Source of the DNA: Pyrinomonadaceae bacterium
GTDB taxonomy: Bacteria; Acidobacteriota; Blastocatellia; Pyrinomonadales; Pyrinomonadaceae
Direction of reading: 5' to 3'
Assembly: GCA_036001745.1 (NCBI GenBank)
Contig: DASYTZ010000142.1
Coordinates: 1,131 to 65,130 of the forward strand
DNA: 64,000 nucleotides
The stretch's first letter is position 1; each line of letters begins with the position of its first letter. This document shows, in pieces, positions 561 through 62,358 of the stretch. The translations under genes were made by a program, and so were the position numbers. A model generated the notes under the pieces. That model was given only the letters and a program-made list of their open reading frames with translations. It made no database searches and was not told where the DNA came from.

Positions 561-590
561 CTGACGTCTGATATCTGACGTCTGATGTCT
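561..590. repeat. Right arm of the heptamer-array inverted repeat (CTGACGT CTGATAT CTGACGT CTGATGT)
   Basis: Read directly. It is complementary to 65..98. It contains the first ATG (585) of the downstream cyclase ORF. Confidence 0.85.
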
Positions 591-2465
591 ATGCCTTTTC
601 GCCAATTCCATTACCGCTGGCAATTCGATCTCCGATCTTCTCCCGAAAAACTTTGGCCTCTGGTCGCCGACACGAATCGCTTTAATCGCGACACGGGTGT
701 GCCGGCGGTGGAGGCGGTTGGCGAAAAGAGCGGGACCGCCCGTCGTTTGAGGTTGTCGAGTTTTGGAATTCCTGTCGAATGGGAAGAGCAGCCTTTCGAG
801 TGGGTGCGGCCGCAGCGCTTCGGCGTTGTCCGTCGTTACACCAAAGGCCCGATCGCTGAGTTGCGTGTGCTGGCACAGTTGACGCCGATCGAAAACGCAG
901 CTGGCGGTTCATCATCGGACCGTCGCGCCAACGGTTCGGTTGGGACGAAGCTCATCTACGAAGTCTGGGCGAAACCGAAAAATCTTCTCGGGACGTTGGC
1001 CATTCCAATTCAAATCGGCATCATCAGCGCACGAAATTTCGCCCGCACGTTTCGGCAGTACGATGAACTGGCGCAAAGCGAATCTGCGGCAGCGACGACT
1101 CCTGCTGCCGAAGTTGAATTCACTCCCGGAGGTCGCTCGCGGCTCGTGGAACTCGGTGAGCGCCTCATTGCGAACACCTGCGACGAAGAGTTGGTTGCCC
1201 TGCTTGTCGATCACATCGAGAACGCTGACGATTTTGCATTGTCGCGCATTCGGCCTTATCGACTTGCGAAGCACTGGCAGAAGCCGCGCCGCGATGTTTT
1301 GGAGCTTTGCTTTCAGGCCACGCGCGTGGGCATGCTCGACCTGCAATGGAATCTCGTCTGCCCGATGTGCCGCGGCGGCGACGCAAAGGAATCGCTCAGC
1401 GAGCTGTCGGCGAATGTGCACTGCGCCGGCTGCAACATAGATTTCGGCGTGAACTTCGAGCAGTCAGTCGAACTCACGTTTCGTCCCAATCCGTCGATTC
1501 GGAATATAGACGTGGAAACGTTCTGCATCGGCGGTCCGCAGGTCACGCCGCACATCGTCGCGCAACAGTTGCTTGCGCCCCAGTCGCAAAGATCGGTCAG
1601 CATTCAACTCGAGGAGGGTCGTTATCGTTTGCGGACGTCTGGTCTGTCAGGCCGGCAACATCTGCGCGTGACAGAGGATGGTCCGTGCGGAACGGTTTTG
1701 CGGGCGTGTCCGGATGGTTGGTCAAACAGCGAAGTGGAGATCTCCAGAACTTGTAAACTGGAACTCGAGAACGCCACGACTGATGAGCAACTCTTCATTC
1801 TTGAGCGCACCGAATTCTCGGACGAAGCGGCGACGGCGGCGGAAGTAACCGCGGTTCAGATGTTCCGTGATCTGTTTGCGCGCGAAGCTCTGCGTCCAGG
1901 TGAACAGATTTCAGTTGGGACGCTCACGGTGCTTTTTACAGATTTGAAAAACTCGACCAGGTTGTATCGCGAAATAGGCGACGCGACTGCCTTCGGCCGC
2001 GTGATGAATCACTTCGACGTTCTGAAGCAGACCATCGCTTCGGAAGACGGCGCGCTGGTTAAGACGATTGGCGATGCCGTGATGGCTGTGTTCCGCCGGC
2101 CCGCAAATGCTCTGCGTGCGATGCTCGAAGCGCAGCAGCAGCTCGCGAATCCACCTGACGGAATGTTGCCACTGACGTTGAAAGCCGGATTGCACACCGG
2201 CCCATGCATCGCGGTGACGCTGAATGATCGTCTTGATTATTTCGGCTCGACCGTAAATTTGGCGGCGCGTCTGGAAGGCCAATCGACCGGTGATGACGTC
2301 ATTATTTCTAACGTCGTCTATTCTGATCCCGAAGTACGCGAACTATTGAGCGAGTGCCCGGCCGGTCTTGCTGCGACGCGATTCACGATTCCGTTGAAGG
2401 GATTCGACGATGAGCAATTCGAGTTGTGGCGCGTCGCGCGCGCCGCCGCCGTACATGCAAAATAA
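585..2465 (+). CDS. Class III adenylate/guanylate cyclase with an N-terminal SRPBCC-like region and a Cys4 cluster
   Basis: The C-terminal FTDLKNSTRLY...KTIGDAVMAVF...GLHTGPC...DYFGSTVNLAARLE matches the class III cyclase catalytic domain. A CPMCRGG...CAGCN cluster lies mid-protein. The start is 585 or 591; both are ATG. Confidence 0.85.
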   Translation: MSMPFRQFHYRWQFDLRSSPEKLWPLVADTNRFNRDTGVPAVEAVGEKSGTARRLRLSSFGIPVEWEEQPFEWVRPQRFGVVRRYTKGPIAELRVLAQLTPIENAAGGSSSDRRANGSVGTKLIYEVWAKPKNLLGTLAIPIQIGIISARNFARTFRQYDELAQSESAAATTPAAEVEFTPGGRSRLVELGERLIANTCDEELVALLVDHIENADDFALSRIRPYRLAKHWQKPRRDVLELCFQATRVGMLDLQWNLVCPMCRGGDAKESLSELSANVHCAGCNIDFGVNFEQSVELTFRPNPSIRNIDVETFCIGGPQVTPHIVAQQLLAPQSQRSVSIQLEEGRYRLRTSGLSGRQHLRVTEDGPCGTVLRACPDGWSNSEVEISRTCKLELENATTDEQLFILERTEFSDEAATAAEVTAVQMFRDLFAREALRPGEQISVGTLTVLFTDLKNSTRLYREIGDATAFGRVMNHFDVLKQTIASEDGALVKTIGDAVMAVFRRPANALRAMLEAQQQLANPPDGMLPLTLKAGLHTGPCIAVTLNDRLDYFGSTVNLAARLEGQSTGDDVIISNVVYSDPEVRELLSECPAGLAATRFTIPLKGFDDEQFELWRVARAAAVHAK

Positions 2466-2558
2466 CCACAGAGGACACAGAGGAAGACCTCCGACACAAG
2501 CTGAAATCACAGGCTCTGCATTTTCTGTAGTTGCTGCATTCTCTGTGTCCTCTGTGGT
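2465..2558. repeat. Perfect 18-bp inverted repeat (ACCACAGAGGACACAGAG / CTCTGTGTCCTCTGTGGT) with a 58-nt spacer
   Basis: Arms at 2465..2482 and 2541..2558, read directly. The left arm is built from tandem CACAGAGGA units. It fills the gap between the cyclase stop and the ABC ATPase start. Confidence 0.9.
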
Positions 2559-2567
2559 GAAAGCCAA

Positions 2568-3239
2568 ATGCCAATAATCGAAACCCGCCAAGTCACTCGT
2601 ATCTACCAAATGGGAGCCAACCAGGTTGCGGCGCTGGACGGCGTCAGCATGGGCGCTGACGAGGGCGAGTTCGTCGCGATTCAGGGGACTTCCGGTTCCG
2701 GAAAGTCTACACTTTTGAATGTTCTCGGCGGACTTGATCGGCCGACAAGCGGCGATGTTTTATTTGACTCGCAGCTGCTCGGGCCGCGCACTAAAAAGCA
2801 AATGGCGCGCTATCGCCGCTTCTCAGTCGGGATGATCTTTCAAAATTTCAACTTGATCCCGACGATGACGGCGGCTGAGAACGTGCGACTGGCGCTGGCA
2901 TTTGGCGGAGTGCGCGGAGTTGAGCGGCGCCAGCGTGCGGCCGAGTTGCTCGAACGCGTCGGCTTGTCTGATCGAAGGGAGCATCGTCCGGGCGAGTTGT
3001 CTGGCGGCGAGCAGCAGCGCGTCGCAATCGCGCGAGCATTGGCGAACCGGCCGCGCGTTTTGCTTGCCGATGAACCGACAGGAAACTTGGACTCGACGCG
3101 CGCTCACGAACTCTTGTCACTTCTGCGCGAGATGGTCGACCGCGACCGTTTGACTGTGTTGTTGGTCACGCACGATCGCGAACTGGCGAGCAGCTTCGCT
3201 GACAGAATCATCACGATGAAAGACGGACGAGTAGCGTAG
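2568..3239 (+). CDS. ABC transporter ATP-binding protein (MacB/LolD/FtsE-like), no adjacent permease
   Basis: Walker [10 protein letters not shown], signature LSGGEQQR, Walker B LLADEPT. Confidence 0.9.
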
Positions 3240-3289
3240 CGCAAGTTGTTAACTTGCGTTCACATTCGCAAATTAACAATTTGCGCTAC
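3236..3289 (+). promoter_or_regulatory. Nested palindrome: two near-identical 19-nt hairpins (CGCAAGTT-GTT-AACTTGCG and CGCAAATT-AAC-AATTTGCG) whose outer segments are also complementary
   Basis: Four segments at 3236..3247, 3251..3258, 3267..3274 and 3278..3289. Pairings 1:2, 3:4, 2:3 (7 of 8) and 1:4 (11 of 12) are all possible. It lies between the ABC ATPase stop and the GAGG-ATG of the cNMP-binding gene. Confidence 0.4.
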
Positions 3290-3307
3290 ATTCATGAGGT
3301 AAATCCC

Positions 3308-4198
3308 ATGTCAACACCGATTCCCCATGGCATGACCATCGAAGCGATTCGATCCGTGCCGCTTTTTGCTTCGCTGACTGATGAAGACGCGCAGGAACTG
3401 CTCACGCTTTTGCAGAGTCGCGCCATCACAGCCGGCACGTCGTTATTTCACGCGGGCGAACTGGGCGACGCGATGTATCTGATTCAGAGTGGTCGCGTGC
3501 GCATCGCGGTGAAGGACGCGGAAGGGAAGCAGATCGTTTTGGCCGAGCTGGCGCAGGGCGATTTCTTCGGCGAAATGTCCATCATCGATGGCAAGCAGCG
3601 TTCAGCCGATGCGGCCGTAATCGAAGACGCGCATCTTTCTGTTCTATCGCGCGAAGATTTCCTGCGGTTCGTCAACACCAATCCGGGCGTCGCGCTCGAA
3701 ATGTTGAGCGCTGTCTTCCAGCGTCTGCGGCATACCGACAAGATGTTGCAACAACGTGTGTCGCGCAACGTTAATGAAGAGCAAGACAAGCGGATGACAA
3801 TCGCGGATCGCGCTGCGGATGTCATCGCCGAATTTGGCGGTAGCTGGAAGTTCATTATCACTGCCATCGGAATCATCATCGCTTGGATCATCTTCAACTC
3901 TTACGTGCTGGTTAGAGGATTCGACCCCGTGCCTTACCAGATGCTGAACCTCGTCATGGGCATCATTGCCGGGTTGCAAGCGCCGATCATCATGATGTCG
4001 CAGAATCGCCAGGGCTCGAAAGATCGTCTCCGCGCCGATCTGGATTATCAAGTGAACCTAAAGAATGAAATCGCGCTTTCCGAAGTGCTGCGACGGCTCG
4101 ATGTGCTTGAGAGCGAGCGCCTGCCGCTTTTGTTTGCGCAGCAGAACGAGCGATTGGTGGAAGTGAAAACTACGGCAGCTGCTGGTCCGCAATCCTAA
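3308..4198 (+). CDS. Cyclic-nucleotide-binding domain protein fused to a DUF1003-type membrane domain
   Basis: N-terminal cNMP-binding pattern: LFASLTDEDAQEL...GELGDAMYLIQSGRVRI...GDFFGEMSIIDGKQRSADA. C-terminal GSWKFIITAIGIIIAWII...MMSQNRQGSKDRLRADLDYQVNLK is DUF1003-like. I chose the ATG at 3308 (GAGG 10 nt upstream) over the track TTG at 3254, which lies inside the palindrome. Confidence 0.8.
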   Translation: MSTPIPHGMTIEAIRSVPLFASLTDEDAQELLTLLQSRAITAGTSLFHAGELGDAMYLIQSGRVRIAVKDAEGKQIVLAELAQGDFFGEMSIIDGKQRSADAAVIEDAHLSVLSREDFLRFVNTNPGVALEMLSAVFQRLRHTDKMLQQRVSRNVNEEQDKRMTIADRAADVIAEFGGSWKFIITAIGIIIAWIIFNSYVLVRGFDPVPYQMLNLVMGIIAGLQAPIIMMSQNRQGSKDRLRADLDYQVNLKNEIALSEVLRRLDVLESERLPLLFAQQNERLVEVKTTAAAGPQS

Positions 4199-50909: not shown

Positions 50910-51938
50910 TCAATGGACGACAAACTTGTGAGTGTTCGCATAACCGCGATCACCAACCTGATATTCAATTCCGGCCGGAAGGCTCAACGACAAAGGATGT
51001 CGCTTGCCATCGTGCGCCTTTTCATTCAGATAAAAGCCAACCAGGTACTGGCTCTTCAGGTCATCTTCAATCGCCCGAAACACTGGCGTGAGATCGACTT
51101 TGTCCCGGGTCGAGAAAGGCGTGTCACTAACCAGAAAATATTTTCCGCCGGTCTTTTCCGCGAGTTGGCGGAAACCGTTTGCCGCGCGACGGACCGAAAG
51201 ACGTCCATCGCGGGGCTCGAACAGCGGCAGATGAATCACATAAAACGAAATGGTCTTTTCGCGCGCGGCGTCAATGACTGCGCTAGCTCTTGTCTTGCTG
51301 GCATTGTCTAACCCATCGCTTATGAGAATGACGATGCGCCGCTCGCTTCGCACTCGCGGCAGCGCATCAAACATCGCAACGGCTCTGGTCGCCGCATCAA
51401 AAATTGCGGTGTGTTGATTCGCTCGCGCTGCCAGGTCAAATGTGGATTTCGCTGCCGCTGTGTCTCGCGCGAAAGGCGCGACAATCGTTGGCGTTTCGGC
51501 GAAGTGCAGGACAGCGATACTCGACTTGCTTCCGAACCGTTGATAAAGGCCAAGCGCCGCGTCCCTTTGCTCGTTAATGATGTCGCGCAGGCTACCGGAT
51601 TCGTCGAGGGCGAAGACCATTGCAACGCGATCCACACCGGCTGATAAATAAAGATTGTTGGTGACGCGGTCTGGATCTTTCACGAACAGATCGCGGTCGG
51701 TGAGTCCATTCGGTCTCTGCCCGCGCTGATCGCGAATGCGCGCGGGAAAGAGAATCAAGTCGGTGTTGACGCGCAGAATTTCGTCGTCGTCTGCGCGAGG
51801 CCGATCGGTCTGTGCAACAACTTCAGAAGGCGATGAAAGAGTTACTGAGAGAAAGGCGAAGAAAAGACAGCGAGCAAAGAATTTTGGAGCAGGTGCAAGC
51901 CGGAAGGCGGCTTCGCGAAAGACTGTTTGCCGGAACAT
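50910..51938 (-). CDS. Exported VWA-domain protein (VWFA-related, acidobacterial type)
   Basis: MIDAS-like VAMVFALDESGS, plus IVILISDGLDNAS and the C-terminal YLVGFY motif typical of this family. Confidence 0.8.
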   Translation of the reverse strand: MFRQTVFREAAFRLAPAPKFFARCLFFAFLSVTLSSPSEVVAQTDRPRADDDEILRVNTDLILFPARIRDQRGQRPNGLTDRDLFVKDPDRVTNNLYLSAGVDRVAMVFALDESGSLRDIINEQRDAALGLYQRFGSKSSIAVLHFAETPTIVAPFARDTAAAKSTFDLAARANQHTAIFDAATRAVAMFDALPRVRSERRIVILISDGLDNASKTRASAVIDAAREKTISFYVIHLPLFEPRDGRLSVRRAANGFRQLAEKTGGKYFLVSDTPFSTRDKVDLTPVFRAIEDDLKSQYLVGFYLNEKAHDGKRHPLSLSLPAGIEYQVGDRGYANTHKFVVH

Positions 51939-52032: not shown

Positions 52033-52125
52033 ACCTCAGGACTGGCGCAAGTTTAGTTAACGGCGATCGCGCGTGTCAATAGGGTTCGGGCTGACGCTGA
52101 ACAAATTTACAAAAATTTAACAACT

Positions 52126-53340
52126 TTAGTTCCAGGCCCTGGTAACGTTCTCGACGACCCACGCAGCACGTTCGAGAATCTTCGCAAGCCCAATCCGACC
52201 GAGATAATTGCCCACTAGAGCGATATTTGGCGGCGGCGCTGGCAGCTGCGAGAGAATTTTCTCCAACCCAACCGAATAGTGTGGGAGCGCGTTTGGCCAA
52301 CGCGTGATATGCACGGCAAGCGGTAAATCGTCTTTGCTGTAGAAACGGCGACGGTCGCTGAGAATTAGTTGCCGGATTTGGTTATCGTCGAGACTTACGA
52401 CTTCCGGATCGAGCGCACCGCCGAAAATCCAGGTTTCGGCGTGTGCGGGACCACGGCCTTCGAAGATGCAATCGTTAAAGAGCACGCCGCGCCCACGAAA
52501 TCCCTGGTCGCTTGGAAATAGACACCCGAAACCTTTGAGACTGGCGGCATTGCGATCGAAGAAGCAAGTCGTCGTCAGCAGCGACAGCATTTCAATTTGC
52601 GCGAGTGACGCGGCGAGTTCGGGAGCAGCTTCTGCCAAATATTCAGCCGACGCGCGCGCCGAAAGACAAACGATTGTCGACTGATCCGATTGAGACTGCT
52701 GAGAGGTTTCAAAAAGAAATTCGACACCTTTCTGTCGCAGGTAATCAATTAGACTATCGATCATCTGCTGCATTCCGTTCGGCGGCGCCACCGTACCGCG
52801 GACCTTCGCTTTTTGCGGCCGATAGGTTTGCAGATGATCGGGTAATTCCGCCCGTCCAAGAATCAAACTTGCGCTCATTCGATTTGGATCGCCCGCGTAA
52901 ATGCCGCCCAGCGCGGGAATCAGAAGATATTCAGTCGCGCCTTTGTTGAGAACGCGTCTTCCCCAATCGGCAATCGTCTCAAACGGGCGTGGTCGCAAGC
53001 GCGTGGCGTTCAAGGCAAGTCCCAGAGGAATGCGCAAGGCTTCATTTGGCGTGAGGGGTAGTTGTCGTGGTTTGCCACGATAGATGAATCGTTTTCTCGC
53101 CTCACGACGCGTCGGTAGCAGCGGCACGCCAATGTCTGCGCACATCGCTTCAACGCGGGCGGAGTTCAGAATTCCATTCGCGGCGGTTTCGATGAGGCCA
53201 TGTTCAGTTCGGATGGTTTTGATGAGCCCGCCGGCGCGCGAGGTCTTTTCGATCACACGTACGTGGCGGCCTGTTTTCGTCAGCAGGTAGGCGGTTACGA
53301 GTCCGGAGAAACCTGCGCCAACGACTGTGATGGGTTTCAC
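52126..53340 (-). CDS. hemY: Protoporphyrinogen/coproporphyrinogen oxidase, FAD-dependent HemY type
   Basis: ITVVGAGFSGLVTAYLL...EKTSRAGGLI dinucleotide fold. I chose the GTG at 53340 so the gene does not overlap hemN. The track ORF extends to 53448. Confidence 0.8.
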   Translation of the reverse strand: MKPITVVGAGFSGLVTAYLLTKTGRHVRVIEKTSRAGGLIKTIRTEHGLIETAANGILNSARVEAMCADIGVPLLPTRREARKRFIYRGKPRQLPLTPNEALRIPLGLALNATRLRPRPFETIADWGRRVLNKGATEYLLIPALGGIYAGDPNRMSASLILGRAELPDHLQTYRPQKAKVRGTVAPPNGMQQMIDSLIDYLRQKGVEFLFETSQQSQSDQSTIVCLSARASAEYLAEAAPELAASLAQIEMLSLLTTTCFFDRNAASLKGFGCLFPSDQGFRGRGVLFNDCIFEGRGPAHAETWIFGGALDPEVVSLDDNQIRQLILSDRRRFYSKDDLPLAVHITRWPNALPHYSVGLEKILSQLPAPPPNIALVGNYLGRIGLAKILERAAWVVENVTRAWN

Positions 53341-53353
53341 GATGACTCGAGGA

Positions 53354-54697
53354 TCAAAGGGCCTGCGAGAAGGTCTTCGCCTGTGGCTGCTGTCGCCGTA
53401 GGCGGTAGTCGAAAAACATGCAGGCATTCCGCAAGAAAGGTCGGCCACTTTCCGTTAGTGTCAGTTTTTCATCGCGGACTTCGACCAGCCCGTCGTTGAT
53501 GAGCGACGACAAAAAGTTTTTCGCATCATCACGCTGATCGTCGCGCAGCTCGACTTCAAATCGCGTCATGAACTTCAGTATCTGTTCCCGCAGTTGCCGA
53601 TCTTCTTCGGAAAGTAAATGACCGCGGAACGTCGGAATCTCGCCCTGGCGCACGCGCCGCTCGTAAACCGGAAAAGCCTTTTCGTTTTGATGAAAGCATG
53701 TCGGCGCTTCGGAAATCGCGCTGACCCCAAGCCCGAGCAGCACGCTGGTTCGTGTTTCCGTGTAGCCCTGAAAATTGCGATGCAGCGTCCCTTTGCGCTG
53801 CGCCTCAGCCATGCCGTCGTGCGGCAGAGCGAAGTGATCCATACCGATTTCGACATAACCAGCATTCTCCAGTTTTGTGCGCGCCATTTCGTAAAGCGCC
53901 CGCTTTTCGCCCGCTTTCGGGATGTCTTCGTCGGTGTAACTGCGCTGTGCCGGCTTAATCCAGGGGACGAGCGCAAAACTGTACAGCGCGATGCGATCGG
54001 GACGCAGGTCGATTGTCTTGTCAATGCTTTCAGCGAACCGATTGAGGGTCTGTTTCGGCAATCCGTAAATCAAATCGTAGTTGACAGACGTGAAGCCCAA
54101 CTCGCGCGCCATGTCGGTGCAGGTCTTCGTCACCTCGTAAGGCTGATTGCGGTTGACGATGCGTTGTACTTCCGGATCGAAATCCTGTACGCCGATCGAG
54201 ATTCGCGTGAAACCAAGCTCGCGAAGTGTTACGAGGTGTTCGCGCGTCGTATGGCCGGGATGAACTTCGACCGAAGCCTCAAACCTTTCCTGATCGATCT
54301 GAGTTTCGGACAAAATCGGTTTCAGAATCTGCTGCAAATTCTCGGGCGCGAAAAACGTTGGGGTGCCGCCGCCAAGATGAACACCCAACAGGGGGCGCTC
54401 GCGCAGTTTCGGAATTCGATCGAGGTAGTAACTCCATTCTTTGAGCAACAGCTCTTTGTAGCCTTCCTCCCTGCCGTGGTTGCGCGTAATCACAGTGTTG
54501 CATGCGCAGAAAGTGCAGAGCGATTCGCAGAAGGGAAGATGGAAATAAAGCGACCAATTCGCTAATTCATCATCAAAGGCTTTCTCCAACTCGTTCAGCC
54601 ACTGCTCAGTAGTCGGCATGTCGCTCCAGAAGGGAACTGTCGGGTAGCTGGTGTAACGCGGCGCCGGGACGTCGTACTTGGCAAAAAGATCGTTCAC
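53354..54697 (-). CDS. hemN: Oxygen-independent coproporphyrinogen III oxidase (radical SAM)
   Basis: PRYTSYPT N-terminal motif and the CESLCTFCAC radical-SAM cluster. The GTG at 54697 forms a GTGA overlap with the hemE stop. Confidence 0.9.
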   Translation of the reverse strand: MNDLFAKYDVPAPRYTSYPTVPFWSDMPTTEQWLNELEKAFDDELANWSLYFHLPFCESLCTFCACNTVITRNHGREEGYKELLLKEWSYYLDRIPKLRERPLLGVHLGGGTPTFFAPENLQQILKPILSETQIDQERFEASVEVHPGHTTREHLVTLRELGFTRISIGVQDFDPEVQRIVNRNQPYEVTKTCTDMARELGFTSVNYDLIYGLPKQTLNRFAESIDKTIDLRPDRIALYSFALVPWIKPAQRSYTDEDIPKAGEKRALYEMARTKLENAGYVEIGMDHFALPHDGMAEAQRKGTLHRNFQGYTETRTSVLLGLGVSAISEAPTCFHQNEKAFPVYERRVRQGEIPTFRGHLLSEEDRQLREQILKFMTRFEVELRDDQRDDAKNFLSSLINDGLVEVRDEKLTLTESGRPFLRNACMFFDYRLRRQQPQAKTFSQAL

Positions 54698-55866
54698 TGC
54701 AAAACCTCTCTGACTGTATTCACAAATAGTCGGACGTTTTCTTCGGGAGTCTTCGGCAAGACGCCATGACCCAGGCCGCAAATCCAACCGGTGCGATCGT
54801 GCTTCAATAATGGCTTAAGAAATTGTTCAAGATGTGATTTGAGCTCGTCACGGCTGGCGAGCAGAAGGTTCTGATCGAAGTTTCCCTGCACGAAGCCTTG
54901 AGCAAACATGTCAAAGGCTTCGCGCAAATCCCAGTGATGATCGACTCCGATACCAGCCCAGTCTCCGTTCGTGAACAGACTATGATTCAGATGATCGCGC
55001 GTGGTTGCTTTCGAGTAATAGCCAAGGCGTGACGGAAAATTGCGCGTAAGGCGCTCAAGCTGTGGAACAACTTCTGTCTGAAAAACTTCCGGCGCCAATT
55101 CACCCGCCGCCGTGTCGAAAATCATGACCACTTCGGCTCCATTCGCGAGCTGGATTTCTATGTTTCGAATCAGCAGCGGCACCAGCGTTTCGCAGAACTG
55201 TTCGAACAGCTTTAGTTCTTTGACGGCGCGCTCGACGTTCTTGTGTGTGCCTTCGACCGCATAAACGAAAAGCGTCCACGGCCCGCCGACAAAGCCAATC
55301 AAGCTCTTATCATCCGGCAGTAACGTTCGCGTTTCGCGCACCGCATGACCTTGAAACAGGAGATGCGGCCACGCTTCTTTAATGCCGCGCAGTCTCTCGA
55401 CCGTTTGGGCCGTAAGTTGCCGGCCGAGTTGCGGCCCGGCGTCCGTGTAGTCAAGCCCCATCCCCAGCGCTTCGAGCGGGAACAGCAGATCGCTGAACAA
55501 AATTGCCGCATCAAAATCGAAATCCAGAACGGGCCCGAGCGCAACGTGTGCCGCCAGCTCCGGCTGCTTGCACAAATCCATGAACGAAAATTGGTGGCGC
55601 AGATCCTGATAGTGCCGATGATAACGACCGGCCTGGCGCATCAGCCAAATCGGAGGCGTTGCCTGCGGAATTCGAGCCAAAGCGTTTTGGAACCGAGTAT
55701 TTGCTGGACGATCGTTGGCCGCGCTTTCAATCTCAGTCACACCTCGCTTCAGCGAGGTGGATTCGCTCACGGCGAGGTCGTCGAGCCGTTTCAACGGCTT
55801 ATCAAAAAACGGTTGGTCTTTGTCACCTCGCTGAAGCGAGGTGTTAATGAGAGTTTCTTTTGTCAT
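54694..55866 (-). CDS. hemE: Uroporphyrinogen decarboxylase with an unusual N-terminal extension of about 45 aa
   Basis: NDR...PIWLMRQAGRY aligns with the canonical HemE N-terminus. The ATG at 55866 overlaps the regulator stop (ATGA). An in-frame GTG at 55740 is an alternative start. Confidence 0.9.
   Translation of the reverse strand: MTKETLINTSLQRGDKDQPFFDKPLKRLDDLAVSESTSLKRGVTEIESAANDRPANTRFQNALARIPQATPPIWLMRQAGRYHRHYQDLRHQFSFMDLCKQPELAAHVALGPVLDFDFDAAILFSDLLFPLEALGMGLDYTDAGPQLGRQLTAQTVERLRGIKEAWPHLLFQGHAVRETRTLLPDDKSLIGFVGGPWTLFVYAVEGTHKNVERAVKELKLFEQFCETLVPLLIRNIEIQLANGAEVVMIFDTAAGELAPEVFQTEVVPQLERLTRNFPSRLGYYSKATTRDHLNHSLFTNGDWAGIGVDHHWDLREAFDMFAQGFVQGNFDQNLLLASRDELKSHLEQFLKPLLKHDRTGWICGLGHGVLPKTPEENVRLFVNTVREVLQ
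55740..55843. repeat. Pair of 20-nt palindromes (CACCTCGC-TTCA-GCGAGGTG and CACCTCGC-TGAA-GCGAGGTG) bracketing a third hairpin (AGCCGTT-TC-AACGGCT)
   Basis: Copies at 55740..55759 and 55824..55843 are exact reverse complements of each other. The central hairpin is at 55784..55799. All of it lies inside the 5' part of the hemE ORF. Confidence 0.8.
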
Positions 55867-56531
55867 GCCTCAGCATTCCATTGATATCCAACCCCGCGCA
55901 CAGACCTTATGAACTCGCTGTGGGTATCGCCCAGCGACTGCCGCAGGTGCACGATCATGTTGTCCACCGTTCGCTGATTTCCCAGTTTGTCTTCGCCCCA
56001 GAGCCTATCGATGATTTCGTTGCGGCTCACCGCGCGCGGCGCGCTCGTAATCAGCAACTCAAGCAACTCGAAATCTCTGGCCGCCAGATATTCGCGTTGG
56101 CCGTCAGGCTGCACGATGGTGCGGCTATCCAGCTCAATCGTGCGGCCGTTGCACGTCACGTGATGGCGCACCGGATGTCTTTCAAAAACGTGCTGCACGC
56201 GCAAAAGCAACTCGCGCAGGTGAAAAGGCTTCGGGATAAATTCTTCGGCCCCGATTTCAAAGCCTTCCAAACGGTTCTCTGCGGTTCCCAACGCGGTCAT
56301 GAACATAATCGGCACTGACGAATTCGTTTTCACGTGACGTGCTATCTCAAAACCGGACCCGTCCGGTAACCCCACGTCCAGGATAACCAAGTCCCACAGC
56401 CTCTCGCCGAACTTCTTCAGTGCTCGTTGCTTCGTTTCGACCCATGAAACTTCGTAACCCTCGCGCGCGAGCCGATCGCGCAAGGTTGCTCCCAGCGAGC
56501 GATCATCTTCGACAAGGAGAATCGACTTCAT
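55863..56531 (-). CDS. OmpR/PhoB-family response regulator
   Basis: Receiver domain (LLVEDD...DLVILDVGLPDGSG...K) plus a winged-helix domain (RTVDNMIVHLRQSL...IRSVRGVGYQW). Confidence 0.9.
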   Translation of the reverse strand: MKSILLVEDDRSLGATLRDRLAREGYEVSWVETKQRALKKFGERLWDLVILDVGLPDGSGFEIARHVKTNSSVPIMFMTALGTAENRLEGFEIGAEEFIPKPFHLRELLLRVQHVFERHPVRHHVTCNGRTIELDSRTIVQPDGQREYLAARDFELLELLITSAPRAVSRNEIIDRLWGEDKLGNQRTVDNMIVHLRQSLGDTHSEFIRSVRGVGYQWNAEA

Positions 56532-57442
56532 GCCAGCTTGTGTCTCTGCTGCTCCGCCAAAACAGGTTGCGGCACGCTGGGCAGGTTCAACTCAGCGACA
56601 AATCCGCCGTCAGCTCCCGGCGCGAAATCTAGCGTCGCATCCATTCGTTTCGCCAGTTGGCGCGAAATATAAAGACCCACGCCGCTGCCGCTGCCGCGCG
56701 CATGCCGCACAAAGAGCTGGCCCAACTGTTTGAAGTCGCCCTTGAAACCTGTGCCGTTATCGGCGACGCGCAGCGTCAAACGGCCGCCGCTCAAATCGGT
56801 ACTAATTCGAATTTCAGATGCGTCGCCATGCGTCACGGCATTGTGGATCAAGTTCGTCAGTATGCTTTCGAGCGCACGACTGTCGCCTCGTACCACGCCG
56901 TCGCCTCTCTGGACAATCGACAAGTTCGGCCAGTGATATCGCAACACGTCCACGATTTGTCCGATGCGTACCGGCTCGTTCAGCAAGCGTCCGGTCGGCA
57001 GGTTCACTAAGAACAGCGAATTCTCGAGTTGGAGTTGCAGACGCAGTGTGTCCTGAAGCAAGCGGTCAAGCAGCGGATTCGGATTCGCGCCGAGATCTTC
57101 CTTCAAACTCTCGGCTTGCAAACGCAAACTCGCCAACGCCGTCTTCGCGTCATGCGTGAACGCGGCGAAGAACTCTTCAACTTGGGCATGCCGCTTCTGC
57201 TCGCGCCGCGCGTAATAAAAAAGCGCGAGTCCGCCGCCCACGAGCGATACGATCAGGATGCCGCCTTCCCACAAAAGCATCTGATAATGCCGCTGAAGCT
57301 GGTCTGCCTGTTCGACGTGAAACTGGCTCAACAAATCCAACTGGCGCAAGCCAAAGATCAGCCACCACACCGCGAGCGTGACGGTGAACGTGACCCAAAG
57401 GGCCACCAACAGAATCTTTATTCGGTCGCCTCCTTGCTTCAT
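56528..57442 (-). CDS. Sensor histidine kinase, minimal intramembrane-type (two TM helices, no HAMP/PAS)
   Basis: TM1 [23 protein letters not shown], a loop of about 25 aa, TM2 [19 protein letters not shown], then directly the H-box [13 protein letters not shown]-box [10 protein letters not shown]-boxes DNGTGF and GSGSGVGL. Confidence 0.9.
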
Positions 57443-58761
57443 TGTTGATTGCGTGATTCTTTAGCTGCTTCCAAAATCGCGGCGCTCGCATTTTCGATTA
57501 TTCCGTCGTTGTGCGCGAGCGACACGAAACTAACCTCGTAACCGCTCGGCGCGAAATAAACTCCGCGATTCAATGCACTGTGAAAGATCCCCGCGAACTG
57601 TTCTGCATGTCCCGGCGGAATATCCTCGAGACGGCGAATGACCTTGTCCGTTTTCCCGTGCAGCCAAAACATAGAAGCAACGTACGTCAGTGCGAATGGC
57701 AAACCGCGTTGGTCGAACTCGGCGTTCAATTCATCACAGAAGCGCTTTGTGCGTTGCTCAAGTTGCGCGAATGCGTTGACGCGTTCGATTTTCTGGAGCG
57801 TGGCCAAACCTGCGCGCATGCCCACAGGATTCGCGCTCAATGTCCCGGCCTGGTAAACCGGACCCGACGGCGCGACCACTTCCATCAAGTCGCGGCGGCC
57901 GCCATAAGCGCCCACGGGGAATCCGCCGCCAATCACTTTGCCGTATGTGACCAAATCAGGCCGGATACCGAGCAGTTCGGCCATGCCGCCCATCGCGACC
58001 CGAAAACCCGAAATTACTTCGTCGAAAATTACCAAAGCGCCGTTCTGTCGCGCGATATTGACCGTTTGTTCTATGAACTCCCGGCGTTGAATCAGCAAAC
58101 CGTAGTTTGCCGGTTGCGGTTCGAGAATGACTGCCGCGATTTCCGGACCGTGCCGATCGAAAATGGCGCGCACACTCTCTTCGTCATCCAGCGACGCGAC
58201 CAATGTTTCGCTCGCGACGTTTTCAGAAACACCGGCGCTTGAACTAGCGGCAACGCCTGCCAGGCCGCTGCCGGCTTTGACGAGCAGGGAATCAGCGTGG
58301 CCGTGATAACAACCTTCGAATTTGAGAATTCGTGACCGACTGGTTGCCGCGCGGGCAACGCGCAGCGCGCTCATTACGGCCTCCGTGCCGGACGAAACGA
58401 AACGCAGCATCTCGACCCAAGGGACGCGCGCAACGATCCATTCGGCGAGCTCAAGCGAATAAGGTTCGCAAGCTCCGAAGCTCCAGGCCGTACTAATCGC
58501 TTCGTTGACAGCTTCGCTCACGTCCGGGTCGCGATGACCGAGCATCAACGGCCCGAAGCTCTGACAGAAATCAATATACTCGCGACCTTCGACTGACGTG
58601 AGAATTGCGCCTTGGCCGCTGCGGAAGAAGATCGGCGTGCCGCCAACGCCCTTGAACGCGCGCACGGGGCTGTGAACGCCGCCGGGGGAGACGCGCAGCG
58701 CACGGTCGAAGTAATCGCGTGATGTTTGTTCTTGAGCCTGAGCCGGCCTTTGAGAAGTCAT
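57439..58761 (-). CDS. hemL: Glutamate-1-semialdehyde 2,1-aminomutase
   Basis: [12 protein letters not shown] and the class-III aminotransferase body (DEVISGFRV). ATG at 58761. The stop overlaps the kinase ATG (ATGA). Confidence 0.9.
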
Positions 58762-58815
58762 GTCAGGAATTATCCAAAGCGCCGTCGCCGCTGCGCTCTG
58801 CCGGCGCACTCCAAA

Positions 58816-59790
58816 TCAGATTCCGAGTCGCTTCGCGTAGCGCGCACCGTACGTGATGATGAACTGCGCGCCGGCGCGCTTGAAAACGTGCCACGTTTCC
58901 AAAAGCCCTCGATCAAAATCAATCAAGCCATTATCTGCCAGAAGCGACAGCCCCGCATACTCGCCACTAACTTGATAAGCGCCGACCTGAAGCGAAGTCG
59001 CATTCTTGATCGGTGTAATCAAATCCAACGAAGTCAGCCCCGGCTTGACCATCAAGAGGTCTGCGCCTTCTTCAGCACACCTGACGCTGCATGCGACCGC
59101 GTCTGTTCGATTGCGCACGTCGAGCTGATAAGCCTTGCGGTCGCCAAACTGCGGCGCCGAATCAGCCGCATTTCGAAAGGGCCCGTAGAAATTGCTGGCG
59201 AACTTTGTGCTGTAGCTCATCACCGGCACGAGATCGAAACCGTTTTCGTCCAGCTTCGCGCGAATGCGGGCCACGCGCCCGTCCATCATGTCGCTCGGGC
59301 TGATGCCGTCGGCGCCGGCTTCGGCAAAAGCCAGCGCGGAATTCGCGAGTTCGTCGAGCGTCGTCGGATGATCAATTCCTCTGTCATTCAATACTGCGCA
59401 ATGTCCGTGCGTCGTGTACGCGCACAAGCACGTGTCGACCCAAAGACAGAGACTGGAGCCGAACTGTTTGCGAATTTGCGAAATGATTTCACGTTCGAAG
59501 GCATGACTAAATTTGCTTTCGCGCTTTTCGCCGGGGACCGGGAATAGCAGGAAGTGCGTCACACCATCTTTCAGATCACTTTCAATCTGTTGCAAGGCAG
59601 ACGCAAGGCTGAGGCGTACGTTGCCACGCAGTCCGGCGATCGGTTCATCGGCGCCCAGGCCTTCAACTACAAAAAAGGGCTGAATTAGTTGCGCGCGATT
59701 GAACTCAGTTTCCGCGCCCAGATCGCGCAGATGTTGGCTCGCGCGCAGGCGCATCAAACGTTTCATCACTCGCTCATCTCCTTCAGCCAT
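58816..59790 (-). CDS. hemB: Porphobilinogen synthase (ALA dehydratase)
   Basis: LIQPFFVVEG, GISPSDMMDGRV, LMVKPG, YQVSGEY. The start is uncertain: 59790 or internal ATGs 8 and 12 codons downstream. Confidence 0.9.
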   Translation of the reverse strand: MAEGDERVMKRLMRLRASQHLRDLGAETEFNRAQLIQPFFVVEGLGADEPIAGLRGNVRLSLASALQQIESDLKDGVTHFLLFPVPGEKRESKFSHAFEREIISQIRKQFGSSLCLWVDTCLCAYTTHGHCAVLNDRGIDHPTTLDELANSALAFAEAGADGISPSDMMDGRVARIRAKLDENGFDLVPVMSYSTKFASNFYGPFRNAADSAPQFGDRKAYQLDVRNRTDAVACSVRCAEEGADLLMVKPGLTSLDLITPIKNATSLQVGAYQVSGEYAGLSLLADNGLIDFDRGLLETWHVFKRAGAQFIITYGARYAKRLGI

Positions 59791-59798
59791 TGCTCCGA

Positions 59799-59881
59799 TT
59801 CAGAACCCGGAGCGGTAGTCACGGGATCATGATCTCAAGTTGCGCTCTTGATCCGGTCGCTACTGCTCTCGGTTCTGACAC
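59799..59881. repeat. Degenerate second copy of the REP-like inverted repeat (TTCAGAACCCGGAGCGGTAGTCACGGGATCA ... TGATCCGGTCGCTACTGCTCTCGGTTCTGACAC)
   Basis: Same core as 13937..14057 (CAGAACCG.GAGC.GTAGCGACCGGAT), with imperfect arms and a 19-nt spacer. The right arm contains the last six codons and the TAG of hemC/D. Confidence 0.8.
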
Positions 59882-61359
59882 ATTTCTGTTAGCCATTCTT
59901 CGTGATCCAAGAATATGTGTGGCTGAACTCCGTTACGTTCAAGCGTCATCTGCGTATTTCCCGGCCCGCAGAAATGCGTGGATGATTTTAGCAATGGATG
60001 AAGCTGTTGCGCTCGTTCGAAACTCGAGCCGCTCGTCCAAAACAAATACTGCTTTCCGTCCAGGCTCGGACCGTTTTCTTTCGCAATCAGTCTGTACGTC
60101 GGCAGCGTTTCCATTCCGTTTTCGGCTGGGGCATCAGCGTGCGTCAGCTTCAGCCACTGCACGTCTCTTCCAACTAGCGTCTTAATTCGCGCGGTTTCCT
60201 GCTCGCCCAAGCCTTCAGCGCAACCATTCACCCAGACGCCGCGTTGCGCCAGACGCTCCCACGTTTTTAATCCGCTGGTCCAAACAATCTGCGAATCTGA
60301 GATAGACGAGCTATCAGGCAGCGCGTCTGCCTTGGCAATCCACAGCGGCGAATCCGGTATTCTCGCAGGTATTTTCTCGCGTTTGAACCAGTCCGCGTCG
60401 GATGTCTTTAACGGCCACATCAATTCGCGGGAAATCTTTGGTGGCCGCGGCCGAGCCGGCGCTAATCGGCAGTCACTGAGCACAATTCCCTCGTCAGTCA
60501 CCCCACGAACAAAAGTAATCTCGCCATACGGCCGCCGCAGGACGCTCGCGCCGATTTTCTGGTGGCACCCGCCGCCGTAGCTGCTGAGAATCTGCCGCTC
60601 ACGCGCGGCGCTCTCGAATGCGTCACGACAGTTCAGCGACGACAAAGCGTCTCGCAATTCCGGTCGGCCAATCTTGATTTCGACCGCCAGAGCGCCTTGC
60701 GCCGGCGCGCTTGGATTAGCGCGCAACGGCAAAACCATCCAGCGACATTGCGACAGCGACTTTCGTAATTCTGCTTGTGTCGCAGCGAACTCTTCTTCGG
60801 GCGCTTCTAGCAAACGGTCGAGCGCGGCCTTCGCGACAATCAATCCGTCGGCGCCGGGGTTCCATATTTTGCGCACGCGCGTCGGGACGTTGCCGCGCAC
60901 CGGCTCAAAAATTAACTCATCGATTTGCGTCGGCAGAGCAACGCGCAGAAATGAATCGAGGTTGTAGCTGCGGCGCGGCGACGAAGTCAAAATCGTTATG
61001 CGACGCGTCTGCTGAACCTCTTCCCATCTATCGCGGCGCACGAGCAGCAAATCGCGCATGTCAGCGCGCGGCAACGTGGCCGCAATCTCAGTCTCGGCAT
61101 CAGCTTCGATTGCCAAGTCCTTCCATGAGTGCACGGCGAGGTCATAGCGCCCGGCGAGCAAACCGTCGCGCAGATCCTGTGTGAAGACGCCTTTCTCAGG
61201 CATCTGCCAAAGCGGATCGTTTTGGTTCTTATCGCCGAGGGATTCGTGGAAGGAATACTCGAGCGTAATTTGCGAGTGTGTTACTTGAAGAGCGCGGCCG
61301 ACCTGAAATGCCTGAATACGCGCCAACTCGCTGCGACGCGCAGCGAGAATTACGCGCAT
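59860..61359 (-). CDS. hemC: Hydroxymethylbilane synthase fused to a C-terminal uroporphyrinogen-III synthase-like domain
   Basis: The N-terminal ~300 aa are HemC-like (RRSELARIQ..., GDKNQ, KGVFTQDL, DLAVHSWKDL). The C-terminal ~190 aa (IVWTSGLKTWERL...YLFWTSGSSFERA) resemble HemD half-domains. ATG at 61359. Confidence 0.8.
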   Translation of the reverse strand: MRVILAARRSELARIQAFQVGRALQVTHSQITLEYSFHESLGDKNQNDPLWQMPEKGVFTQDLRDGLLAGRYDLAVHSWKDLAIEADAETEIAATLPRADMRDLLLVRRDRWEEVQQTRRITILTSSPRRSYNLDSFLRVALPTQIDELIFEPVRGNVPTRVRKIWNPGADGLIVAKAALDRLLEAPEEEFAATQAELRKSLSQCRWMVLPLRANPSAPAQGALAVEIKIGRPELRDALSSLNCRDAFESAARERQILSSYGGGCHQKIGASVLRRPYGEITFVRGVTDEGIVLSDCRLAPARPRPPKISRELMWPLKTSDADWFKREKIPARIPDSPLWIAKADALPDSSSISDSQIVWTSGLKTWERLAQRGVWVNGCAEGLGEQETARIKTLVGRDVQWLKLTHADAPAENGMETLPTYRLIAKENGPSLDGKQYLFWTSGSSFERAQQLHPLLKSSTHFCGPGNTQMTLERNGVQPHIFLDHEEWLTEMCQNREQ

Positions 61360-62252
61360 AAATCTTCCCAACCGAAGGGGCGGAACTGTGCCTGTTCGAT
61401 TAGCCTTTGAGTGGCCTGCTTGATTTCATCTCGCGCGGCAGCGACGCGCGCGGCAAGTTTTGGCCGCTCGTTTTTCAGAGCGGCAAACATCTCTGACAAG
61501 CGGATGACAGGCAGCGAACTATTCAACGGATCGGTTTCAGCTTCGCCGCGAAGGTCGATGACCTTCACGAGAGGCGCTGATTGAGCACGCATCCATGACT
61601 CGACGTCACTCGCCTTGATTGGCGCAGCGATCACGATTGCCGTTTCCCGAGTTTCATCGATTGAAACGCCGGCCGTGAATTGCGCTAGTTTGGTTGCCGG
61701 AAACTCCTGAGTGATCCAGTTAGCGCGATCCAGATTCCTGGCGCAAACCGTCACGTCGGTCTTGCCCACGATCCACGGCAGAATTTCCTCGGCGAGTTGT
61801 CCCGCGCCCAGCACAACGACGGATGGAATTCCCTTCAAATGTTGACGCACCATACCGCCGTACGATTGACTGCCGAGGCCTTCGAGATGACGATTCCGCA
61901 CGCGCTTCGCATCGACCAGCAAATCCGAAGTCATGTGGCGGAGGAAGTGACCCCATTCATTCGACGGAAACCTCGCGTGCGCGCAGAACTCTTTGAACTG
62001 GCTCATGACCGCTGTCTCTGCCAGCAACGGCGAACGCAATCCACAAATGACTTCGAGCAGAAAATTGTAGGCGGCCTGGCCTCCGTAAATTTCGGAACCT
62101 TCAGGCAGAGCCGGAATCAACGCGGCGCTTTCAGATTTGTGCAGCAGGACGATTCGGCGCAGGCAGGTCTGCCATTCGAGACCGTTGATGGCGACCGGCC
62201 ATTTTTCTCCCGGTTTGGCGGCGTGGTGTAGAACTACGAGATCGTCCAGCAC
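61350..62252 (-). CDS. hemA: Glutamyl-tRNA reductase, short form (300 aa)
   Basis: WQTCLRRIVLL corresponds to STCNRxE. ICGLRSPLLAETAVMSQFKEF corresponds to GLDSMVLGExQILGQVK. NADPH site VVVLGAGQLAEE. GTG start. There is no C-terminal dimerisation domain. Confidence 0.75.
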   Translation of the reverse strand: MLDDLVVLHHAAKPGEKWPVAINGLEWQTCLRRIVLLHKSESAALIPALPEGSEIYGGQAAYNFLLEVICGLRSPLLAETAVMSQFKEFCAHARFPSNEWGHFLRHMTSDLLVDAKRVRNRHLEGLGSQSYGGMVRQHLKGIPSVVVLGAGQLAEEILPWIVGKTDVTVCARNLDRANWITQEFPATKLAQFTAGVSIDETRETAIVIAAPIKASDVESWMRAQSAPLVKVIDLRGEAETDPLNSSLPVIRLSEMFAALKNERPKLAARVAAARDEIKQATQRLIEQAQFRPFGWEDLCA

Positions 62253-62282
62253 GCCCCCATTTTAGAAATCCGAAAACGGCGA

Positions 62283-62300
62283 TTGTCATAGTTTTGTCAT
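62283..62300 (-). promoter_or_regulatory. Direct repeat ATGACAA-N4-ATGACAA (11-bp period) upstream of hemA; candidate OmpR-family regulator site overlapping a -35 position
   Basis: The minus strand reads CCAA ATGACAA AACT ATGACAA TCGCCGTTTTCGGATTTC TAAAAT GGGGGC GTG. The proximal repeat lies 18 nt upstream of a TAAAAT hexamer. Confidence 0.35.
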
Positions 62301-62358
62301 TTGGCTGAGGAAATTTCAGATTTTCGCCGCCGTTTGTGACGCTGATCACGAACGGAAC

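Follow-up and report, generated by a model that had tools for sequence, protein, structure and literature searches.

A 64,000-nucleotide (nt) stretch of a Pyrinomonadaceae genome (contig DASYTZ010000142.1; hereafter the window) carries a heme biosynthesis operon with a two-component system, a sensor histidine kinase (HK) and a response regulator (RR), embedded among the biosynthetic genes. We consider it very probable that this locus is the Pyrinomonadaceae (Acidobacteriota) ortholog of the heme operon controlled by HemKR in Leptospira and, taken jointly with this, that it works through the feedback mechanism set out below. All of the HemKR properties that we checked by sequence are present: architecture, homology, key residues, the hem-box (TGACA[N6]TGACA), and linkage to hem genes. 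The embedded pair extends the known HemKR system to a phylum for which it had not been mentioned before, Acidobacteriota, and is not a new kind of regulation.

The open reading frame (ORF) listing places nine minus-strand ORFs, all in the same direction, across positions 52126-62252 of the window, in the order hemA-hemCD-hemB-hemL-hemK-hemR-hemE-hemN-hemY. A preliminary description of this DNA had claimed nine co-directional heme and signaling genes at these coordinates, and the ORF listing together with Pfam and NCBIfam searches confirmed them. Read directly, the hemL/hemK (57439-57442), hemK/hemR (56528-56531), and hemR/hemE (55863-55866) junctions are all ATGA, and the hemE/hemN junction is GTGA (54694-54697), where the GTG start of hemN overlaps the hemE stop. 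The hemA stop codon, TAA, lies at 61350-61352, and hemA overlaps hemC by 10 nt provided that hemC starts at ATG 61359. Thus, the four junctions and, given this start, the overlap were as first described, and the gene order likewise bears out the claim that the signaling pair sits inside the biosynthetic operon, not beside it. Such stop/start overlaps are family-wide features: the HK/RR overlap is -4 in 52 of 83 loci, the hemE/hemN overlap is -4 in 49 of 65, and the hemA/hemCD overlap is -10 in 51 of 59. Promoter-like and terminator-like motifs within the cluster were not more frequent than in shuffled sequence. We infer from these sequence features that hemA to hemY form a single transcript.

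This arrangement has a characterized counterpart. In Leptospira interrogans, the pair (Hklep/Rrlep, or HemK/HemR) sits between hemL and hemE in hemACDBLENYH and is co-transcribed with these genes, and Louvel 2008 remarked on the same linkage of pair and hem genes in Bdellovibrio bacteriovorus (PMC2266917). The L. interrogans gene order and the Bdellovibrio remark contradict the preliminary description where it places the genes of heme-related two-component systems outside the tetrapyrrole operon. We reached the L. interrogans locus through a partial regulator matched by the receiver sequence of PDB entry 4Q7E, the other matches being short or partial. It encodes hemA (289 amino acids [aa]), hemCD (542 aa), hemB, hemL, HK (305 aa), RR, hemE, hemN, a DUF5683 gene, and hemY. 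In two assemblies of this locus (L001/L002, 9900-10000), hemR appears split into 58 and 190 aa; the split is a run of N, that is, an assembly gap and not a frameshift.

The window and the Leptospira systems (LB014/LB015 in L. interrogans; LEPBIa1422-1423 in Leptospira biflexa) share the gene order from hemA through hemY with the pair between hemL and hemE, a kinase of about 305 aa with two transmembrane (TM) segments, a short loop, and no HAMP or PAS domain, an OmpR/PhoB-type regulator, a TGACA-N6-TGACA repeat at a like distance ahead of hemA, a short, probable glutamyl-tRNA reductase (GluTR), and a predicted HemC/D fusion. They differ in that the window comes from an acidobacterial host of about 55% GC content, that the kinases are just 34% identical, and that the hemA GTG lies 6 nt past the -10 element and hemE has a variable N-terminal extension in the window. 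The window also lacks the DUF5683 gene that L. interrogans has between hemN and hemY, and it has no adjacent ferrochelatase gene, whereas in L. interrogans hemH adjoins hemY (PMC2266917).

HemK (56528-57442, minus strand) is a 304-aa sensor histidine kinase. The preliminary description had proposed a domain scan of both proteins; by Pfam, the kinase consists of HisKA and HATPase_c only, and the regulator consists of Response_reg and Trans_reg_C. Hydropathy revealed hydrophobic segments centered on residues 16-23 and 64-69 of HemK, which place TM1 at about residues 9-31, a loop of about 24 aa at about 32-55, and TM2 at about 56-77. The phospho-acceptor H97 lies about 20 residues past TM2, with T101 at +4, and this leaves no space for a HAMP or PAS domain; Pfam detected neither. 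These data agree with the earlier claim of a kinase with two TM helices about 25 residues apart and no HAMP or PAS domain, and with its assignment to an intramembrane-sensing architecture.

Over residues 9-291, which cover both TM helices, HemK is 34% identical to L. interrogans HemK (E 1e-57). The Leptospira kinase has two TM segments separated by a 32-residue loop and the phospho-acceptor H98, and its regulator has D53 (PMC2266917); T102 of L. biflexa HemK is in register as the phosphatase-motif threonine (PMC11426443; PMC2266917). The key residues of the window pair, H97, T101, and D52, are thus in register with H98, T102, and D53 of L. biflexa. In an alignment of 47 kinases that included L. 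interrogans, W16, W26, M55, E59, and G70, all in or adjoining the TM helices, were invariant and T20, W27, and G60 were nearly so, while the loop was variable. In Leptospira HemK, the loop can be replaced, but the TM region is required (PMC2266917). That the TM residues are invariant and the loop variable fits this result and points to HemK sensing its signal within or next to the membrane, via its TM helices, much as the preliminary description had supposed.

HemR (55863-56531, minus strand) is an OmpR/PhoB-type response regulator with D52 as the phospho-acceptor, and it shares 50% identity with the L. interrogans protein. Its receiver domain matched 4Q7E with about 50% identity and 116 bits; other receiver-only PDB entries scored at most 84 bits. 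In the recognition helix, R187, D190, and N191 recur in at least 98% of the 77 HemR family members compared.

The region upstream of hemA contains the predicted operator of this regulator. An exact TGACA-N6-TGACA hem-box, TGACAaaactaTGACA, lies at 62299-62284 on the minus strand, 31 nt upstream of hemA, as a direct repeat with 11-bp periodicity within a 106-nt upstream region (...ccaaaTGACAaaactaTGACAatcg...). It is an exact match to the motif that phospho-HemR binds in Leptospira (PMC11426443). The interval in which regulator binding had been proposed, 62270-62310, thus holds an exact candidate HemR site. All 56 related loci that could be evaluated, drawn from Acidobacteriota, Bdellovibrionota, and Leptospira, have a hem-box ahead of hemA on the coding strand, and in 54 of them the box is exact. 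In 1.29 Mb of loci we counted 65 exact hem-boxes, against about 2.5 expected by chance. In L. interrogans the box reads TGACActtcttTGACA and lies 34-37 nt ahead of the hemA start.

The geometry of the promoter is conserved along with the box. A -10-like hexamer, TAAAAT (62259-62264, minus strand), lies 19 nt past the hem-box and 6 nt ahead of the hemA GTG. The spacing of box, 19-20 nt, and TAnnnT was seen in 51 of 53 loci, and that of -10-like hexamer, 6 nt, and GTG was seen in 30 loci of the Pyrinomonadaceae type. No Shine-Dalgarno sequence was found between TAAAAT and the hemA GTG (62250-62264). Because the hexamer is only 6 nt from the GTG, the sequence suggests that the hemA mRNA is leaderless or near-leaderless and GTG-initiated. 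None of the 82 related loci has the second exact TGACA-N6-TGACA that lies antisense within hemA of the window (61494-61509, plus strand), not even L003 with its 98% identical hemA; we regard this second copy as probably due to chance. Boxes with one mismatch, including those at 3784 and 45292 within coding regions, were at chance level (4 found versus 2.6 expected).

Linkage of the pair to hem genes is a property of the family. A search of 1.84 billion cluster representatives with the kinase gave 272 matches at E<=1e-30, and the best 150 of the 272 were mostly about 280-310 aa with near full-length alignment. For a genome scan, we used one genome per species and the H-box pattern KT[PSA]LASLRLQ from a seven-sequence kinase alignment. 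The pattern is narrow, and so the counts are lower bounds: there were at least 127 relatives, and loci were analyzed for the best 80 of 127, a set outside which most Leptospira species fall. By label, these 80 comprised 46 Acidobacteriota (mostly Pyrinomonadaceae/Blastocatellia), 31 Bdellovibrionota, 2 Leptospira, and 1 Heliobacteriaceae. The kinases of L003 and L004 are 96-98% identical to that of the window, which therefore belongs with the Pyrinomonadaceae/Blastocatellia relatives. When the nine window proteins were compared with the loci by tblastn, 72 of 80 proved to have hem genes flanking HK-RR. The usual order was hemA-hemCD-(hemB)-hemL-HK-RR-hemE-hemN-hemY, so that the position between hemL and hemE, about which the preliminary description had asked, is the usual one in relatives. 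Gene content, junctions, homology, synteny, and the conservation of operator and promoter geometry are thus all observed directly in the window and its relatives.

hemB was often missing from this order in Bdellovibrionota: hemCD was followed directly by hemL in L048, L050, L051, L054, L056-L058, L060, L061, and other Bdellovibrionota, in whose genomes hemB must be encoded elsewhere.

Together with the Leptospira experiments, these features lead to the following model. One promoter ahead of hemA, at which the HemR operator overlaps the -35 position and is followed by the -10-like TAAAAT, would drive hemA to hemY as a single, tightly coupled transcript, so that hemKR would be auto-regulated along with the pathway. 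HemK, a minimal two-TM kinase, would phosphorylate HemR at D52, and phospho-HemR would dimerize head to tail on the tandem TGACA repeats, in the manner of PhoB, and activate transcription. When 5-aminolevulinic acid (ALA) or a later tetrapyrrole intermediate accumulated, HemK would become a phosphatase through its H97-x3-T101 motif; HemR would be dephosphorylated and transcription of the operon would drop, so that the committed GluTR step would be under negative feedback. Phosphorylation of HemR, its binding to the operator, activation, and the phosphatase switch are each backed by experiments in L. biflexa (PMC11426443; PMC2266917). By analogy with Leptospira, we would expect HemK to pass its phosphate to HemR, HemR to bind DNA and to act as an activator, and ALA to trigger the phosphatase switch here as well. 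Feedback control of tetrapyrrole flux, which the preliminary description had suggested as the role of the pair, likewise agrees with what has been found for the orthologous HemKR (PMC11426443; PMC2266917).

Several points weigh against this model or parts of it. Entry 4Q7E, which we take to be the L. biflexa HemR receiver domain, carries only a generic name in the PDB table. Translational coupling of the regulator to hemE is only plausible, since the hemE start is uncertain: although the reading frame extends back to the ATGA, the ~55 codons at its beginning (55702-55866) form a variable low-complexity extension, which is kept in L004, L005, L006, L009, and L010 and is absent in L003, the closest relative, and in more distant relatives. 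Promoters internal to the coding regions may also exist. At the hemA promoter, the spacing of 19 nt from the second TGACA to the -10 element would suit occlusion of a weak promoter equally well. In L. biflexa, deletion of hemKR, in a double knockout described in 2024 that grows without added heme, left the hemA operon unchanged under standard conditions, and under iron limitation it raised hem operon expression to about 8-fold above the wild-type level (PMC11426443). The effect of HemKR on the L. biflexa hemA operon is thus modest and composite, and its sign and strength in the window may differ. The sign of control at hemA is the weakest link of the model because the Leptospira data are composite.

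One alternative is that the locus is a HemKR ortholog in which phospho-HemR mainly represses, by occluding the TGACA -35 element. The second half-site lies at the expected -35 position, where Leptospira reads TTGACA; HemR represses hmuO in L. biflexa, and the elevated expression in the deletion strain under iron limitation would fit such a role as well (PMC11426443). However, published Leptospira work describes phospho-HemR as an activator of hemA, and in hklep/rrlep mutants the hemA, hemE, and hemL transcripts fall 2-10 fold and the cells need hemin or ALA (PMC2266917). ALA-triggered dephosphorylation of HemR also lowers hemA expression (PMC11426443). The layout of the promoter speaks for activation too: tandem 11-bp repeats over the -35 position with a long 19-20 nt to the -10 element fit class II activation of the PhoB type, as is familiar from OmpR/PhoB regulators. 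We therefore consider repression at hemA unlikely.

A second alternative is that the kinase senses iron status, redox, or membrane stress, not a tetrapyrrole intermediate, and is merely co-resident with the hem genes. HemKR contributes to the tolerance of iron starvation in L. biflexa (PMC11426443), and orphan pairs of Acidobacteriota adjoin a Fur-family gene, with a hem-box ahead of a TonB-dependent receptor gene. However, it is ALA or a metabolite derived from it, and not Fe3+, that triggers the HemK phosphatase and ends HemR phosphorylation in L. biflexa (PMC11426443). The pair also stays in the hem operon in three phyla, and its operator is placed at hemA, whose product governs the supply of ALA. 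Sensing of iron, redox, or stress in place of a tetrapyrrole intermediate is thus quite improbable.

It is scarcely credible that chance has put an unrelated two-component system of the generic PhoRB, CreBC, or KdpDE type into the operon: close HemK homologs carry the automated names PhoR, PrrB, and "HAMP domain-containing," and the best NCBIfam matches by E value are PhoR and PhoB models, but the scores are far below the NCBIfam cutoffs (PhoR, 49 bits against 334; PhoB, 145 against 296 and 152 against 270; KdpD, 41 against 1,123), there is no HAMP or PAS domain, and the conservation of position, architecture, and operator across phyla, with synteny and the hem-box, rules out a chance pair. 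Orthology to an unrelated system, which the preliminary description had named as the finding that would speak against it, was therefore not what we observed; the pair is orthologous to a characterized heme-related system and linked to hem genes in most loci.

The HemKR assignment also fits comparison with other known systems. PhoR/PhoB and the pho box share with the window an OmpR/PhoB-family regulator, tandem 11-bp direct repeats over the -35 position, and a bifunctional kinase/phosphatase; they differ in that PhoR has a PAS domain and receives input via PstSCAB/PhoU and that the operator sequence and regulon are other. Intramembrane-sensing kinases of the BceS/LiaS type, which are an architectural class and not a homology family, share two TM helices, a linker of about 25 residues, the lack of a cytoplasmic input domain, and a length below 400 aa, as well as a dispensable loop and a required TM region, as in Leptospira HemK (PMC2266917). 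Unlike them, HemK has no partner ABC transporter or LiaF-like protein nearby in the window, and the output is cofactor biosynthesis, not an envelope-stress response. HssRS and ChrSA/HrrSA have in common with HemKR a two-component control tied to heme homeostasis. HssS has a large extracytoplasmic domain and HAMP, ChrS and HrrS contain several TM helices and work with NarL-type regulators, and these systems control heme export or degradation. To our knowledge, none of them is embedded in a hem operon.

The biosynthetic genes of the operon, all on the minus strand, include two whose assignment is less direct. The product of hemA (61350-62252), only 300 aa long, is probably a divergent GluTR that lacks the C-terminal dimerization region, as judged from sequence. 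It scored 29.9 bits with PF05201 and 32 bits with TIGR01035, below the cutoff of 209, and the window sequence alone had no match in PDB. We call it a GluTR because a profile of 27 family members matches the GluTR structures 1GPJ (E 2.4e-13) and 4N7R, the match to 1GPJ being in the NADPH domain, and because the motif TC[LM]R is invariant in the family. Canonical GluTR has the catalytic-cysteine motif TCNR at the corresponding place and is roughly 420 aa long, whereas hemA is consistently short (about 275-325 aa) across L001-L082.

The hemC/D gene (59860-61359) encodes a hydroxymethylbilane synthase joined to what is probably a cryptic uroporphyrinogen-III synthase domain. Its N-terminal half matches PF01379 and TIGR00212. 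The C-terminal domain, about 225 aa (59863-60540), matched no Pfam family, either as the window sequence or as 28 family members, and the family profile had no match in PDB. An AlphaFold model of this domain, built with 16 homologs, had a confidence (pLDDT) of 72, and its top ten PDB fold matches were all uroporphyrinogen-III synthases (3RE1, E 6e-6; TM-score ~0.45). The domain is thus predicted to fold like uroporphyrinogen-III synthase (HemD), in agreement with the Leptospira literature, in which the ortholog is named bifunctional HemC/D. Close homologs are publicly annotated only as "hydroxymethylbilane synthase" or "hypothetical protein."

The remaining enzymes are conventional in their matches. 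hemB (58816-59790) encodes porphobilinogen synthase (PF00490, E 3e-105; NF006762, 347 bits, above cutoff), and hemL (57439-58809), for which GTG 58809 and ATG 58761 are candidate starts, encodes glutamate-1-semialdehyde 2,1-aminomutase (NF000818, 549 bits, above cutoff). Uroporphyrinogen decarboxylase is encoded by hemE (54694-55866; PF01208, E 1e-78, matching from residue 55), and oxygen-independent coproporphyrinogen III oxidase is encoded by hemN (53354-54697; TIGR00538, 426 bits, above cutoff). hemY (52126-53340) encodes protoporphyrinogen oxidase (TIGR00562, 124 bits, above the cutoff of 98). Its start is most likely GTG 53340, not the ORF maximum at 53448; homolog alignments begin 12-17 nt past the hemN stop. 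No ferrochelatase was matched among the tested ORFs of at least 180 aa anywhere in the window, which agrees with its reported absence from the cluster.

At the borders of the operon, a hairpin 3' of the upstream DUF885 gene was no better than shuffled sequence (z = -1.0). Directly downstream of the hemY stop lies a sigma-70-like site, TTGACA-18 nt-TAAACT (52050-52079, minus strand), followed by a vWA-domain gene (50910-51938, minus strand) and then purH; here the hem operon ends on its 3' side and another transcription unit begins. Toward the other end of the window, 585-4198 on the plus strand encodes an adenylate/guanylate cyclase with DUF5939, an ABC ATPase, and a gene with cNMP-binding and DUF1003 domains. 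This group may be a cyclic-nucleotide signaling module unrelated to the hem operon.

Neighbor-joining trees (no bootstrap) of HemL+HemE+HemN and of HK+RR recovered the same major clades, so pair and cassette have evolved together. The clade of the Blastocatellia type stands apart from the Vicinamibacterales-type Acidobacteriota, a hint that the cassette has spread by lateral transfer. A locus labeled "uncultured Heliobacteriaceae" (L041, CAZLYK010000074.1) has the full cassette, and both trees place it within the Acidobacteriota clade; mis-binning or mislabeling of this contig of a metagenome-assembled genome is the probable reason. In eight loci, HK-RR is an orphan away from hem genes. Three of these (L042, L043, and L044) have an exact hem-box right after the orphan regulator, and in L042 (8722-14382) the kinase gene has a Fur-family gene upstream of it and a hem-box precedes the genes for a TonB-dependent receptor and a DUF3386 protein. 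This suggests that the HemKR family also controls heme or iron uptake, resembling the HemR regulon of Leptospira.

More tentatively, and as a reading that we think less likely than not, the cassette of hemA-hemY, hemKR, and the hem-box with its leaderless promoter could be a self-contained unit that has spread by lateral transfer among Blastocatellia, Vicinamibacteria-type Acidobacteriota, Bdellovibrionota, and Leptospira, with a sensor that reads a tetrapyrrole intermediate in the membrane via W16, W26, W27, M55, E59, G60, and G70. If this were true, cross-phylum conservation would locate the long-sought ligand site of HemK.

HemKR has hitherto been treated as a leptospiral peculiarity, apart from the one passing remark on Bdellovibrio. 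Many genomes of Acidobacteriota and Bdellovibrionota conserve the whole unit: the short GluTR and the cryptic HemC/D, the kinase with its regulator, and an operator whose distance to the -10 element is fixed. The public annotations of these kinases as PhoR, PrrB, or "HAMP-containing" are flagged by this result. For the kinase, the invariant TM residues set against a variable loop provide a natural mutational map for the signal-binding site of HemK, with candidate sensor residues, and for uncultured soil bacteria the locus provides a predicted regulon logic.

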